Shown: in pieces, positions 10,190-35,909 of the stretch
Position numbering within the stretch: position 1 is the stretch's first letter
Layout of the letters: the number at the start of each line of letters is the position of its first letter
NCBI GenBank assembly: GCA_044226015.1
Contig: JBGAHS010000006.1
Location: 352,001-416,000 of the forward strand
Length of the DNA stretch: 64,000 bases
From: Candidatus Obscuribacteraceae bacterium
GTDB taxonomy: Bacteria; Cyanobacteriota; Vampirovibrionia; Obscuribacterales; Obscuribacteraceae
Reading direction: 5' to 3'
The notes under the pieces: model-generated
The model's input: only the letters and a program-made list of their open reading frames with translations
What the model was told of the DNA's origin: nothing
The model's database searches: none
Made by a program: the position numbers and the translations under genes

Positions 10190-10678
10190 ATGCGAGTGAC
10201 GGAGGAAATGGAAATGCAAGCCGAATTTGAAACCTACGAAATCAAACCCAAGAGCAATGAAGAGCAAGAGCAATTGAGCCAGCAGCTGTGGGATGGCTTG
10301 GAGCATTCGAATCTTCAAAATCGCCAAAACAATCAGCTGGACGATGCGACTTTATCGCAATCGCCAGACCATGACTTACCAAACATTGAATTGCATGATG
10401 GCACAAAACACGATGACACCATCCAGGCTAAATGCGCTGATGAATCATGCAACCGAGACTGGCAAAAGGAAATGGATACGCTCAGGTCAGAGATTAGTAG
10501 CGACATTCGAGGACTAACCCCTGCCGAACAGAATGCGATCCAAAAACTTCAGGAAGAGTATCCAACGAAGAATGGTGACTTTTCTAAATCAGTAGTGAAG
10601 TACCTTTATCTCCAGGGGCAAGAAGAACTGGCCAACAAGATGATTCGCCTGAGAGACATGAGCGGCATCATGTTCTAA
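10190..10678 (+). CDS. Hypothetical acidic protein
   Basis: 162-aa ORF; GGAGG precedes the internal ATGs. Confidence 0.6.
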   Translation: MRVTEEMEMQAEFETYEIKPKSNEEQEQLSQQLWDGLEHSNLQNRQNNQLDDATLSQSPDHDLPNIELHDGTKHDDTIQAKCADESCNRDWQKEMDTLRSEISSDIRGLTPAEQNAIQKLQEEYPTKNGDFSKSVVKYLYLQGQEELANKMIRLRDMSGIMF

Positions 10679-10971
10679 GGCTGCCAATTTCTTACTTGTG
10701 ATTTCAAGAAATAAATTGCATCCGCTTTTGGACCTGAGAAATAGCTTATCCTCGCATTAACAAACATCTATTGCATCTCGCTTACGGGCAATTTACATGA
10801 GCGACACTACCAACAAGAGGATACTATTTCGCACCCAACAGATATACGATCCAAACAATGATTCTGAATCAAAATGTTCGGATGCCTGACAATTCGTTTC
10901 TAATTTTTATCGATGCATTTTAGCCATATTTTGCTATCGATTTAATATCGAGAAAATACTTTCTGGGGGAG

Positions 10972-11000
10972 TGTACAGAGATACATCGCACTGCTAAAGT
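10972..11000 (+). promoter_or_regulatory. Putative sigma70 promoter of ncRNA copy 1
   Basis: TGTACA-N17-TAAAGT with TGn extension; both hexamers and the 17-nt spacing are conserved in copy 2 while the spacer sequence is not. Confidence 0.6.
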
Positions 11001-11004
11001 ATTT

Positions 11005-11216
11005 GCATGTTCGGTGAGCGATTGAAAAAGCAATCGCGTTGAGCCGAGGGGCAATGCGGAAACAGCAGGAATGCGCATTCCGGGAACAGCAGCAGAAAGC
11101 CCGTTTTACGTGAAGGATTGGCTGAAGCGTAGAAAGATATTGAGCCTCCCGCAAGAGGCAGCCAAGCAATAGCAATAATACCGCTGCGATTTAGTTCGAG
11201 CGGTATTTTTGTTTTT
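11005..11216 (+). ncRNA. Unassigned structured RNA, copy 1 (includes its intrinsic terminator)
   Basis: Homologous to 16067-16282 (-), with compensatory base changes and indels that break any shared ORF. Confidence 0.7.
11177..11216 (+). terminator. Rho-independent terminator of ncRNA copy 1
   Basis: AATACCGCT-N13-AGCGGTATT followed by TTTGTTTTT. Confidence 0.75.
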
Positions 11217-11319
11217 GCCAGCACTATTTCCGGTCCATCTGCCTGTATCGAAAGTTCATTGCTTCACTCGACCGTTCATTCAACTCGTGTGATAATGCTT
11301 TCGCGCCATTCCATCAACC

Positions 11320-12066
11320 GTGAGCGCTTTATCTCAGGTGAACACAATGGAAAAGAACGATAAAGCTGGATCTGATCGTGAGATAAAAAACGAAGCAAAG
11401 GCTCCGCCACCGAATAACCGTCCGACTGAAGCCAAGCCTCTTAATCGATTGCACAAAACGATGAAGATCGCCCTTATCATAAGTATGGTAATCGATTCAC
11501 TTTCTACATTCGTCATCACTGCAGCAAGCTTTCTGCCACCAATAGACGCCATTACTGAGAACACGCCATTACACATCATTCTTGTGCATATCGCAGTAAG
11601 TACACTCAGCTTCTGCCAAATCGGACTGGTTCTGGTTATAGGTTTTTCTTTGATTCAATGGATGTATCGATGCTACAGAAATCTGGAACTTATTGATCAA
11701 AAAGGACTTACAACTACAAGCAATTGGACGATTATCTGCTGGTTTATCCCATTATTGAATTGGGTGCGACCGTTTTTCATTATGAAGGAGATTTACTTCG
11801 GAACTGCGTCCGATGGGCGAAGCCTAAACATGGCGCAGAAAGCTCCGTTTTACATTAGTCTCTGGTGGACATGCTGGGTCACTCAAGGAATTATGGGACG
11901 AACATCGCAGATCATTCTAAACAGAGACCCAAGCAATATTTTGATCAACGTCCTATCAATCGGTTCGAACTTGTTCGAGATAGGAGCAGCTGTATTTCTC
12001 CTGCGAGTCATCAAAGAAATAACTGAGCTACAAAACCATAGAATTCCATCTATTCAATCGGTTTAG
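11320..12066 (+). CDS. DUF4328-family membrane protein
   Basis: Four hydrophobic segments; WMYRCYRNL...WFIPLLNWVRPFFIMKEIY...LWW motif. Confidence 0.75.
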   Translation: MSALSQVNTMEKNDKAGSDREIKNEAKAPPPNNRPTEAKPLNRLHKTMKIALIISMVIDSLSTFVITAASFLPPIDAITENTPLHIILVHIAVSTLSFCQIGLVLVIGFSLIQWMYRCYRNLELIDQKGLTTTSNWTIICWFIPLLNWVRPFFIMKEIYFGTASDGRSLNMAQKAPFYISLWWTCWVTQGIMGRTSQIILNRDPSNILINVLSIGSNLFEIGAAVFLLRVIKEITELQNHRIPSIQSV

Positions 12067-16066: not shown

Positions 16067-16282
16067 AACAAACAAAAACACCATCCGAACTAAATCGCGA
16101 TGGTGTTTTAGCTATTGCTTGGCTGCCTCTTGCGGGAGGCTCAATATCTCTCTACGCTTCAGCCAATCCGTCACGTAAAGCGGGCTCTGCTGCTGGTGTT
16201 TCCGGGATGCGCACCCCTGATGTTTCCACATCGCCCCTCGGCTCGTAGCGATTGCTTCATTCAATCGCTCACCGAATATGCA
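16067..16282 (-). ncRNA. Unassigned structured RNA, copy 2 (includes its intrinsic terminator)
   Basis: Reverse-complement homolog of 11005-11216; terminator AACACCATC-N13-GATGGTGTT followed by a T-tract. Confidence 0.7.
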
Positions 16283-16286
16283 TACT

Positions 16287-16315
16287 ACTTTAGCGGCTTC
16301 AATCGCACTTGTACA
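16287..16315 (-). promoter_or_regulatory. Putative sigma70 promoter of ncRNA copy 2
   Basis: TGTACA-N17-TAAAGT on the minus strand. Confidence 0.55.
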
Positions 16316-16585
16316 CTACCCCAATGAAGAAGACCGAGAGATAAAATCACCTGCAGCAAACGACACTATTGTGTCAAAAAATATTAGACAAAAATTGTCA
16401 GGCACTCGAACTAGCAGCCCCCTATACCGGACGAATATCGTATATACAACATACATATAAGGCATTTCTAAGTGCAATCCAGGGGAAGCCTATACGCTGC
16501 TAATTCGATACACATTCGATAACTAGAACGCCTTTCTTAAAAAGATCAAAAATTCTTTTCCTGCTCTGATACTCTCAGTGCAGCT

Positions 16586-16672
16586 CCGAGCCGAGCCGAG
16601 CCGAGCCGAGCAAACCAAGCCGAGCCGAGCAAACCAAGCCGAGCCGAGCAAACCAAGCCAAGCCAAGCCAAG
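16586..16672 (+). repeat. Pentanucleotide microsatellite (CCGAG/CCAAG)n with a 19-bp higher-order unit
   Basis: ccgagccgagccgag...caaaccaagccgagccgag...ccaagccaagccaag. Confidence 0.9.
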
Positions 16673-16676
16673 ACTG

Positions 16677-17390
16677 ATGAATCTCAAAGCCACAATTCCC
16701 AAAGCCGCTCGTCTTTTAGGCACTATTGCGATTTCACTGCTGATGATTGCTAGCGCTGGAGTGCTCATTCTTAACCTGTGCCCTAAACCACTATTGGGTC
16801 TTCCGGAGAGTACATGGCAATTGCGAAAGTCCGATGCAATTATCGTGTTAGGCACACCCACAAAAAAGGATGGAAAAGCCACTCCGAGTTTGAGAGAACG
16901 GGTGCGCACCGGGGTTGATCTCTACAAGCGAGGAATGGCAACAAAGCTCATAGTTACAGGAGCCGCAGCACACAACAAGTTTGTAGAAGCAGATGTCATG
17001 GCAGCGGATGCTGAATTAATGGGCGTGCCAGCCGATAAAATAATTCGGGAGCGTGAAGCGAAAAACACCTATCAAAATGCTTTCGATTCCTATCTAATAA
17101 TGAAAGCAGAAGGAATGAAATCCGCGATAGTTGTGTCATCGCCCGCGCATTTGTTGCGTGCAAATTTAATTTTCTCACGCTACCCAATCGAATATTGTGT
17201 GTTCGGGTGCGATTACCCTGCTGAACAAAATGCATGGGACAGACTCATCTTCGACCAGAGAGAGAAGTATTTTGTTCTTGCGGACCTGATTCTCAATAAA
17301 GGTATTCTTCTGGGGTTGAAACCAGAACAGGCACAACAGATGCCACAGATTGCAAAAGAAGCAGAGCTGATGCACTCCCAATCAAAGTAA
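16677..17390 (+). CDS. YdcF/DUF218 family protein
   Basis: DAIIVLG, LRERV, TGAAAHN..EA, E.EAKNTYQNA, VSSPAHLLRA. Confidence 0.88.
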   Translation: MNLKATIPKAARLLGTIAISLLMIASAGVLILNLCPKPLLGLPESTWQLRKSDAIIVLGTPTKKDGKATPSLRERVRTGVDLYKRGMATKLIVTGAAAHNKFVEADVMAADAELMGVPADKIIREREAKNTYQNAFDSYLIMKAEGMKSAIVVSSPAHLLRANLIFSRYPIEYCVFGCDYPAEQNAWDRLIFDQREKYFVLADLILNKGILLGLKPEQAQQMPQIAKEAELMHSQSK

Positions 17391-19813: not shown

Positions 19814-22276
19814 CTACCGCCTTGCTCTCACTCTTCCGGCACCGGCTCTGCCAGCGCGACTGTGAGATTTTTTATTAGCAGGGCGGCTGGCACCTGCATG
19901 TGCGGATTTCGCAACATTTGAATGCCCTTGCTTTCGACCGTAACCTGATTTGCCAACAGCGCTTTTTCCATAAGAACGTCCCGCAGAGCCATGAGCTGCC
20001 TTAGAACCACTGCTTCTGCCTTCTGAGCGCCCTTCCGAACCGTAGCCAGATTTGGCACCATAACTTCTGCCTTCTGCGCGTCCTTCCGAACCGTAGCCAG
20101 ATTTAGCACCATAGCTTCTGCCTTCTGAGCGTCCTTCCGAACCGTAGCCAGATTTAGCACCATAGCTTCTGCCTTCTGAGCGTCCTTCTGAACCGTAGCC
20201 AGATTTCGCACCATAGCTTCTGCCTTCTGAGCGTCCTTCTGAACCGTAGCCAGATTTGGCACCATAGCTTCTGCCTTCTGAGCGCCCTTCTGAAGCGTAG
20301 CCAGATTTAGCACCATAGCTTCTGCCTTCTGAGCGCCCTTCCGAACCGTAGCCAGATTTGGCACCATAGTTTCTGCCTTCTGAGCGTCCTTCTGAACCGT
20401 AGCCAGATTTGGCACCATAGCTTCTGCCTTCTGCGCGTCCTTCTGAACCGTAGCCAGATTTGGCACCATAGCTTCTGCCTTCTGCGCGTCCTTCTGAACC
20501 GTAGCCAGATTTGGCACCATAGCCTCTGCCTTCTGCGCGTCCTTCTGAACCATAGCCAGATTTGGCACCATAGGCGCTACGATTTTCTTGAGATCTTCCG
20601 CCAGAACCATATGTGGACTTTTGCCCGTTGCTTCTTGCACGGTCTTCAGACCCGTTGCTGTACTTTGAACGAACGCTTTGCTTTTCCTGCGAACGCTTGC
20701 CGAAGCCGTCGGAAGAATAGTTTTGTTGATCTATAGAATCGCCATAACCATCAGAGTTTGACTTCCCAACAGAACCATCTCTGTAGACTGCAGACTGTCT
20801 TCCTTTGTTATCTGAACCATAACCTGCAGAACGGCTGCGATCATTCCTGCCGTATTCAGATGCTGCAGAATGCCTAGAAGAGGAATTGGAGCGGCTTGAA
20901 CCATAAGCCTTTCGACCTTTATGTTCATGTTTTAATTTCGAAGAGTCATTGCCAGAAAATTCCGTTTCGTTACCATCGGATGACTCTGAGTCGTTAAAAT
21001 AACGCTTAGCAAATCTGTTACGTCCGAACTGAGCTTCGCGGCCAAAGTCAGAGCGAGAGCCCGATTGAGCCTTCGCTAGAGGTTTTCTGTAAGCATCTTC
21101 TTTAGGCTGATATTCTTCTTGAATCTCAACAACTTTGCGAGCAGAACGAATTTCAACGACTTCTCGTTTTCCATTTCCATTCTTCAAAACATCAAATATA
21201 GCTTTGACAAGATGACGCTGATCGTTGGAAACAAATGAATGCGCAAAACCAGCGCGTCCAGCTCTGCCAGTACGTCCGATGCGATGGACATAATCTTCGG
21301 CAAGCATAGGCAAATCAAAATTGACCACGTGACTTATAGATGGAATGTCGAGCCCACGCGCAGCAACATCAGTAGCAATGAGGATGCAAAACTCTCCGTC
21401 TCTAAATCTCTTAATAGTGTAAGAGCGTTGCTTTTGGCTTATATCACCGTGAATCTCTTCTGCCGGAATTTCCAGCTCACGGAGGGCAGCTGTAAGTTGT
21501 GACGCCTTACGCTTCGTCTTTGTGAAAACAAGCATAGAGTCTACTGATACATCGCCAATCAGCTCAACAAGCCTTTTTTGCTTTTCCTTCTCTTTAATGT
21601 AGTGGAATTGCTGATCAATCGACGCTGCTTCAACCTTGTCATTGTTCACCTGAATAACTTCCGGCGATTGCAAGAATTCCTCGGCAAGATCCTTAATACG
21701 ATTGTCTATGGTGGCAGAAAACATGAGCGTTTGGCGCACTTTAGGAACCCGAGCCATAACAGCTCTGACTTGCGGCATGAAACCCATGTCTAGCAGTCGG
21801 TCTGCTTCATCGAGTACAACATGTTCAACTACATTTAAGTTCGCGTAGTTGCGATTCACACAATCAACAAGTCGACCTGGTGTGGCAACAATCACGTCAA
21901 CACCACGATGTAGCGCTTGAATTTGCTTCCTGTAGCCGACCCCACCAAACAAGGTGATAAGTTTCAAGCCAAAAGGCTTGCCAAATCGTTCGAATTCCGT
22001 CGCGACTTGTGTTGCCAACTCTCTAGTTGGAACGACAACGAGCGCTCTGGTCTTAACTTTTTCACCAGCTTTGGTGCTTTGTGACAATTTGGCGATTAGC
22101 GGAAGAGCATATGCCGCCGTTTTACCAGAGCCAGTCTGCGCTGAAGCTATCAGGTCCTCGCCAGCACTGACGGTTCCAATAGCTTTGACTTGAATTTCCG
22201 TCGGCTCAACAAATCCAATCGCATTTAGATGACTAACCATTTCACTGGAAAGTCCAAGTTCACAGAATGACACCAC
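19814..22276 (-). CDS. DEAD-box RNA helicase (RhlE/DeaD-like) with a long low-complexity C-terminal tail
   Basis: Q motif, AQTGSGKT, PTRELA, DEAD, SAT, TDVAARGLD, HRIGRTGRAG. Confidence 0.96.
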   Translation of the reverse strand: MVSFCELGLSSEMVSHLNAIGFVEPTEIQVKAIGTVSAGEDLIASAQTGSGKTAAYALPLIAKLSQSTKAGEKVKTRALVVVPTRELATQVATEFERFGKPFGLKLITLFGGVGYRKQIQALHRGVDVIVATPGRLVDCVNRNYANLNVVEHVVLDEADRLLDMGFMPQVRAVMARVPKVRQTLMFSATIDNRIKDLAEEFLQSPEVIQVNNDKVEAASIDQQFHYIKEKEKQKRLVELIGDVSVDSMLVFTKTKRKASQLTAALRELEIPAEEIHGDISQKQRSYTIKRFRDGEFCILIATDVAARGLDIPSISHVVNFDLPMLAEDYVHRIGRTGRAGRAGFAHSFVSNDQRHLVKAIFDVLKNGNGKREVVEIRSARKVVEIQEEYQPKEDAYRKPLAKAQSGSRSDFGREAQFGRNRFAKRYFNDSESSDGNETEFSGNDSSKLKHEHKGRKAYGSSRSNSSSRHSAASEYGRNDRSRSAGYGSDNKGRQSAVYRDGSVGKSNSDGYGDSIDQQNYSSDGFGKRSQEKQSVRSKYSNGSEDRARSNGQKSTYGSGGRSQENRSAYGAKSGYGSEGRAEGRGYGAKSGYGSEGRAEGRSYGAKSGYGSEGRAEGRSYGAKSGYGSEGRSEGRNYGAKSGYGSEGRSEGRSYGAKSGYASEGRSEGRSYGAKSGYGSEGRSEGRSYGAKSGYGSEGRSEGRSYGAKSGYGSEGRSEGRSYGAKSGYGSEGRAEGRSYGAKSGYGSEGRSEGRSSGSKAAHGSAGRSYGKSAVGKSGYGRKQGHSNVAKSAHAGASRPANKKSHSRAGRAGAGRVRARR
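20012..20572 (-). repeat. 11 tandem 51-bp coding repeats (YGAKSGYGSEGR[S/A]EGRS)
   Basis: Counted directly in the DNA and protein. Confidence 0.95.

Positions 22277-35837: not shown

Positions 35838-35909
<72 letters not shown>

Follow-up and report, generated by a model that had tools for sequence, protein, structure and literature searches.

Several bacterial noncoding RNAs of unclear function form oligomers through symmetric kissing loops with covarying adjacent bases, among them the OLE dimer and the GOLLD and ROOL oligomers (PMC12286853) and the ARRPOF dimer, which appears in the table of a review (PMC12990946). The bridging L9.3 tips of OLE read GGCC, GAUC or AGCU, and OLE also has a kink-turn (PMC12286853). 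The raiA motif RNA, as described in PMC12968392, is ~200 nt long, pseudoknotted, very abundant, trans-acting and an orphan in function, all of which the RNA described here is or probably is; unlike it, raiA occupies a single locus with fixed gene context in Bacillota and Actinomycetota and has two pseudoknots. Within the same phylum, Yfr2 (Cyano-1, RF01701) is a single hairpin of ~70 nt with an unpaired 5′ GUGUGAGGAG motif, reported as multicopy, non-syntenic and strongly expressed (PMC2662882, PMC6778093; see also PMC6191309).

We analyzed a window of 64,000 nt from a Candidatus Obscuribacteraceae bacterium (contig JBGAHS010000006.1), in which an initial annotation had noted two copies of a structured RNA, at 10972–11216 (+) and 16067–16315 (−). 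All features quoted there are present. Over 255 nt the two copies share 84% identity (blastn, E 1e-68), a likeness beyond chance, and their alignment and compensatory changes bear out the claim of diverged copies whose differences preserve pairing. Fold z-scores against dinucleotide shuffles are −3.01 and −3.05. The RNA had been called unassigned and undescribed, with an Rfam search proposed as the check that could overturn this; the search returned a significant match to poplar-1 (RF03041), for copy 1 at 11038–11176 with 137.8 bits (E 8e-31) and for copy 2 with 136.8 bits (E 1.4e-30), both above the gathering cut-off of 110.5 bits and over model positions 1–141. The consensus stems of RF03041 are maintained through compensatory change, as membership of poplar-1 calls for. 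By these matches, both repeats are poplar-1 genes, encoding an RNA of a catalogued family that lacks an explained function.

We take the poplar-1 family to originate from Weinberg et al. 2017 (PMC5737381), in the main text of which the name “poplar” does not occur. A literature search met “poplar-1” in one drinking-water preprint and “RF03041” nowhere, with no function reported. The host order, copy number, promoter and self-complementary tip described below were obtained in the present analysis; the supplement of Weinberg et al. 2017 may cover some of them and may likewise mention the kink-turn.

The poplar-1 gene is ~205 nt long, as compared with 141 positions in the Rfam model, which begins within the 5′ hairpin and ends before the terminator, missing ~65 nt that include the kink-turn. 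A full-length model (R1) matches copy 1 over all 216 positions with 228.5 bits. The genome contains five copies, four of them on the window contig. One of the five is divergent (L005:1460–1658; G000:C10:557443–557643), has no P4b hairpin and keeps the pseudoknot and the GCGC tip; by this comparison it is a natural minimal variant of poplar-1.

Table 1. Predicted features of the two poplar-1 genes in the 64,000-nt window.
Feature	Position	Strand	Remarks
Copy 1, predicted full transcript	11007..11215	+	5′ end placed 6-7 nt past the −10
Copy 1, promoter	10965..11000	+	GGGG(G/T)A(C/G)T box; −35-like TGTACA 10972-10977; −10 TAAAGT 10995-11000
Copy 1, distal upstream box	10875..10894	+	quasi-palindromic; motif scan of upstream regions
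Copy 1, 5′ hairpin P1 with putative kink-turn	11012..11046	+	mostly outside Rfam model
Copy 1, P2 arm	11049..11102	+	pseudo-two-fold internal loop from two YRGAAACNNYAG-type strands
Copy 1, P2c hairpin	11066..11083	+	tip GCGC 11073-11076, predicted dimer contact
Copy 1, P3, P4 and pseudoknot	11104..11171	+	P3 11104-11134; P4 11138-11171; pseudoknot 11118-11123 / 11160-11165
Copy 1, intrinsic terminator	11177..11215	+	bulged G, upper stem, then U tract
Copy 2	16069..16280	-	RF03041 136.8 bits; terminator stem 16107-16077; tip GCGC 16212-16209
Copy 2, promoter	16287..16322	-	GGGGTAGT box; TGTACA 16315-16310; TAAAGT 16292-16287
Copy 2, distal upstream box	16393..16412	-	top-scoring site of genome scan

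A structural alignment of 93 of the 97 extended sequences (four near-identical G007 copies were left out) shows, through covariation, a predicted four-domain fold with a pseudoknot. Two-sided, compensatory changes are seen at 50 of the 60 proposed pairs, counted in the same 93 sequences from which the structure was derived, which favours the structure; the covariation that had been sought in a larger alignment is present. Paired cells amount to 95.8%, versus 81.5 ± 0.3 in shuffles and 33–39% in slid controls.

Kink-turns consist of a three-base bulge followed by tandem G·A / A·G pairs between two helices. P1 fits this consensus and carries a putative kink-turn, with a 3-nt bulge at 11038–11040 and tandem G·A at 11016–11017 / 11041–11042; the G·A positions are kept in 91–93 of the 93 sequences, the bulge bases are variable, and 9 of the 11 P1 pairs show compensatory changes. 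The internal loop of the P2 arm repeats one 12-base pattern on both strands, giving a two-fold GAAAC repeat. The pseudoknot proposed initially between TTGGCTG (11118–11124) and CAGCCAA (11159–11165) is upheld: both words are there, and its pairs covary, with 95.7% paired and two-sided changes in all six. Three further hairpins quoted with it are all present in the sequence. The terminator is 98.6% paired, with 10 of 12 pairs compensatory and a bulged G in 91 of the 93 sequences; its stems do surround an identical 13-nt stretch, but what had been read as a 13-nt loop is the bulged G plus a short compensating upper stem.

What is new here, on top of a known but unexplained family, is the prediction of a self-pairing tip. 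The P2c tip can pair with itself in every one of the 230 distinct copies, two of which come from a targeted metagenome scan: GCGC in 193, GCGU in 20, ACGU in 13, GUAC in three and AAUU in one, the 20 GCGU tips requiring a wobble pair to self-pair. The two adjacent centre bases change jointly, from CG to UA three times independently and to AU once. On a tree of 165 rows (hairpin excluded, 56 near-duplicate GCGC rows dropped, nine unparsed, bootstrap not fully settled), GUAC requires three origins and ACGU six, and AAUU sits beside ACGU copies. A metagenome scan with the sole demand that the first centre base not be C gave two copies, and the second base was complementary in both; in a control loop, the terminator tetraloops, the centre pair was complementary in 23 of 83. 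Some genomes contain paralogues with differing tips (G009 with GCGC, ACGU and GUAC; also G020 and G021).

Two neighbouring bases of the same strand are unable to pair with each other, and Kretsch et al. reasoned from this in the case of the OLE L9.3 bridge, which was observed by cryo-EM (PMC12286853). Because the poplar-1 tip bears the signature used for intermolecular kissing in OLE RNA, poplar-1 probably homodimerizes through P2c, a prediction that rests on four centre-base events. In co-folding, 204 of 221 copies form their inter-strand pairs at P2c, a result given no weight because any hairpin can swap strands. Poplar-1 thus has the self-complementary loop with covarying adjacent bases that marks the OLE, GOLLD and ROOL type, without sequence or model similarity to these RNAs or to ARRPOF; it differs from them in its length of ~205 nt, its multicopy genes and its one candidate bridge, and in that its dimer is predicted from sequence alone.

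It is unlikely that the RNA is a monomer, with P2c ending in an unusual two-base loop or an intramolecular docking site and all else as proposed below. Such a reading would suit the 193 of 230 tips that are plain GCGC, the dimer being a prediction from sequence, but a two-base loop gives no cause for the two bases to be mutually complementary, and CG, UA and AU centres are seen and a non-complementary one never. A strand-switch mutation in palindromic DNA could also mimic the tip covariation; the G·U pairs in many P2c stems speak against such DNA-level correction.

The conserved promoter of the family comprises the GGGG(G/T)A(C/G)T box and the −10 element. The TGTACA-N17-TAAAGT arrangement first described is present in both window copies (10972–11000; 16315–16287), but its TGTACA part is not conserved family-wide. 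A promoter signature derived from poplar-1 copies lies upstream of 71 of 99 copies and has four matches genome-wide, three of which are poplar-1 copies. The sole other match is at G000:C12:251001 (−). A generic promoter and terminator scan picked up neither window element. Further upstream, the distal box occurs in 173 of 225 upstream regions, in 169 of these 86–89 nt ahead of the GGGG box, and is likely a transcription-factor site. A search for a regulon through this box was uninformative, its 95 genome-wide matches not being specific.

Rfam classes RF03041 as “Gene; sRNA”, and the neighbour-independence of poplar-1 genes, seen in their promoter and in the context counts given below, agrees with this. 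The initial proposal that this structured noncoding RNA has a complete, stand-alone transcription unit of its own is supported by promoter, terminator, gene contexts and metatranscriptome contigs alike. The survey of runs took in 24 from 20 studies, 21 of them recorded as RNA, and contigs of six different runs were mapped; being contigs, they give neither strand, ends nor level. Four RNA runs cover, within 10400–11900, only 11019–11184. Run X1 yielded a 146-nt contig identical to copy 1 (11019–11164, depth 163) and contigs of 76 nt (16120–16195, depth 173) and 101 nt (16166–16266, depth 115) identical to copy 2; its ~21 kb of flanks gave only stray pieces of 40–50 nt, a lack of coverage that by itself proves nothing. 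No contig of the DNA control, run X22, mapped to the region. In run X16, the contig of a relative stops at 16280 before adapter, 7 nt past the −10, a weak hint that this is the 5′ end of copy 2. Judged by contigs, poplar-1 is probably abundant, and a drinking-water preprint names it as one of the RNAs with enrichment in the intracellular RNA (10.1101/2025.10.18.683149).

Model searches show a multicopy, order-wide distribution of predicted poplar-1 genes. Of 39 further genomes of the order, RF03041 matched 36, with 1–12 copies each (33/36 in the same family, 3/3 in the sister family); it matched none of 21 genomes that represent seven more families of the class. The full-length model matched 29 of 30 own-family and both sister-family genomes; among 118 genomes of other families, it gave four weak matches (E at least 2.9e-4). 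In 20 of the 64 parts of the genome collection, a pattern scan returned 139 loci; 16 overlapping loci were left out, and R1 confirmed 109 of the other 123, the remaining 14 all being labelled other phyla. True matches are mostly labelled Obscuribacterales, Obscuribacter or Melainabacteria, and nine R1-confirmed ones carry labels of other phyla, and a few name oxygenic genera; all of these are metagenome bins that may be mislabelled or contaminated. Presence in oxygenic cyanobacteria was rejected, two weak matches there (E 0.012 and 0.033) not resembling poplar-1. Some near-complete members of the same family have no poplar-1 match (G023, 92%; G168, 97%), suggesting that the RNA may be dispensable.

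With confidence that is about evenly divided, we propose that poplar-1 is a stand-alone RNA of ~205 nt, likely abundant, likely a tip-paired dimer and probably a trans-acting platform for protein binding. Two copies would pair through their self-complementary P2c tips, and the dimer would display a pair of kink-turns and a pair of two-fold GAAAC loops to some protein of the cell, which it would hold or titrate in trans. The cell would set the dose of the RNA through its dedicated promoter and gene copy number, the latter growing by duplication at the DNA level. That poplar-1 binds a protein at all seems to us equally credible either way; the guess follows from the dedicated promoter, variable gene dose, structure-centred conservation and two-fold loop. 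Obvious partners (CsrA, Ro60/TROVE and the L7Ae family) were not found in the genome, which is 92% complete, and L7Ae-family matches occur in 2 of 36 genomes in the family, both weak. Poplar-1 as a CsrB/RsmZ-type sponge or as a bacterial Y RNA was rejected for want of a CsrA and of a Ro60 gene, respectively, in this genome.

The main rival to protein binding is that the RNA acts alone, as a ribozyme or a binder of a small molecule or tRNA built on the core of P3, pseudoknot and P4, whether monomeric or dimeric. Bases at the core junctions that are invariant and unpaired or never vary (A46, G47, G102, A134, A136, U137 and A138) would suit such activity. The combination of a pseudoknot with a kink-turn, typical of aptamers and ribozymes, is also found in poplar-1. 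Against this, there is no regulated downstream gene, no other Rfam family matches poplar-1 even at E ≤ 10, the divergent fifth copy dispenses with the P4b hairpin, and contigs cross the core in single pieces, so that a fixed cut is not indicated; we consider a purely RNA-based activity improbable. Likenesses to group I and II introns, hammerhead and T-loop, suggested by known motifs, were discarded, no Rfam model having matched. A wider scenario, in which an RNA-only homodimer of the OLE and ARRPOF kind is a major stable RNA of Obscuribacterales, its paralogues form tip-sorted dimers and its partner or ancestry is shared with Yfr2, we hold as possible, if doubtful.

Poplar-1 might also be an elaborated counterpart of Yfr2, with the same GAAAC...GGNNA loop serving a related factor or pairing with a partner RNA. 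On its GGG/CCC stem, Yfr2 bears GAAAC followed by GGNNA, and the same two positions vary as in poplar-1; it shares with poplar-1 the phylum, a multicopy and non-syntenic character and, probably, strong expression. Poplar-1 contains both GAAAC and GGNNA, with P2c lying between them and with a different pairing. The common words are short, however, and in poplar-1 the 5′ GUGUGAGGAG motif is absent and GUGAG is engaged in the kink-turn. The Cyano-1 model misses the poplar-1 copies, R1 matches none of five Yfr2 loci, and the Yfr2 partner Yfr1 was not found. Cyano-1 itself matched 32 of 101 genomes of the phylum, none listed as this class. A common origin or role with Yfr2 is quite unlikely, and somewhat more so than an activity of the RNA alone.

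The gene contexts show no neighbour that is fixed family-wide for the predicted genes: the next downstream gene has the same strand in 82 of 236 contexts and the opposite strand in 72, while 20 contexts have a further poplar-1 copy there and 62 have no gene within reach; 291 neighbour proteins fall into 206 groups, the largest of 10. Several loci do keep the same neighbour across genomes (an M16 peptidase in 10, UbiD in nine, a lyase in seven), suggesting that these loci are old. In G007, a serpin gene lies beside a poplar-1 copy (L017:33–1388). The promoter has been duplicated together with the RNA, and in one genome a unit made up of a Ser/Thr kinase gene and an antiparallel poplar-1 gene stands six times in tandem with a period of ~2.2 kb (L268:3300–16900; G216:C8), which together point to copying at the DNA level.

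A selfish, non-autonomous mobile element (a MITE, an IS200/IS605-type end or a retro-copy) is very unlikely to account for this pattern, even with copy numbers of 1–12, near-identical copies clustered mostly in one orientation, and flank words of at least 8 nt shared by 19 of 217 copies versus about 10.6 in shuffled pairs. Those shared words have no fixed length, and poplar-1 copies have neither terminal inverted repeats nor a target-site duplication of fixed length. A scan of 216 neighbour proteins, for the most part a single one from each group, at E cut-offs of 1e-3 or 1e-10 found no transposase, integrase or reverse transcriptase, so the MITE check proposed at the outset gave no sign of one. 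The copying of the upstream promoter excludes RNA-mediated copying, and the loci with a constant neighbour are also at odds with mobility. Phage carriage was likewise rejected, since the two pattern matches in one viral scan both fail model R1. That poplar-1 controls the next gene in cis, as a riboswitch or attenuator, is hardly credible: both window copies end in a terminator and have a same-strand gene 105–160 nt downstream, but downstream orientation is near even across the family, the gene functions are unrelated, and the terminator does not overlap the core.

The initial annotation had set the RNA apart from riboswitches, SRP, 6S, tmRNA and RNase P RNA, and rightly so. The tmRNA, the RNase P RNA and a weak SRP match were located elsewhere in the genome, and the raiA model gave no Rfam match to the copies. 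A 6S RNA or its replacement, an idea raised by the lack of an RF00013 match in the genome, was discarded: RF00013 does not match the poplar-1 copies, and 27 of the order's 39 genomes have a separate single-copy 6S-like locus, which scores below the RF00013 cut-off in all. In this genome, a probable 6S RNA missed by Rfam lies at G000:C6:800570–800775; along 208 nt, it shares 79% identity with a weak RF00013 match in a relative.

Other RNA genes of the genome include 18 tRNA genes in a 2.3-kb array (G000:C10:356333–358584), a tRNA-SeC called by ARAGORN (G000:C11:1300243–1300341) and, in the window, a tRNA-Asn gene at 35838–35909 (+). The window also contains, at 19814–22276 (−), a DEAD-box helicase whose long C-terminal tail consists of Gly/Ser/Arg/Tyr-rich repeats, and a short tandem repeat with a 5-base unit at 16575–16680, at the start of a DUF218 ORF.

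As an already catalogued family, poplar-1 does not count as a new system, though it is an orphan. The present analysis sets out the complete gene boundaries, assigns the family to a host order and makes one sharp prediction, dimerization through four named bases. If the prediction is true, a class with few members would gain a small natural RNA oligomer of another phylum, and work on a conserved, probably abundant RNA of bacteria from soil, peat, water and sludge would have its first starting point.
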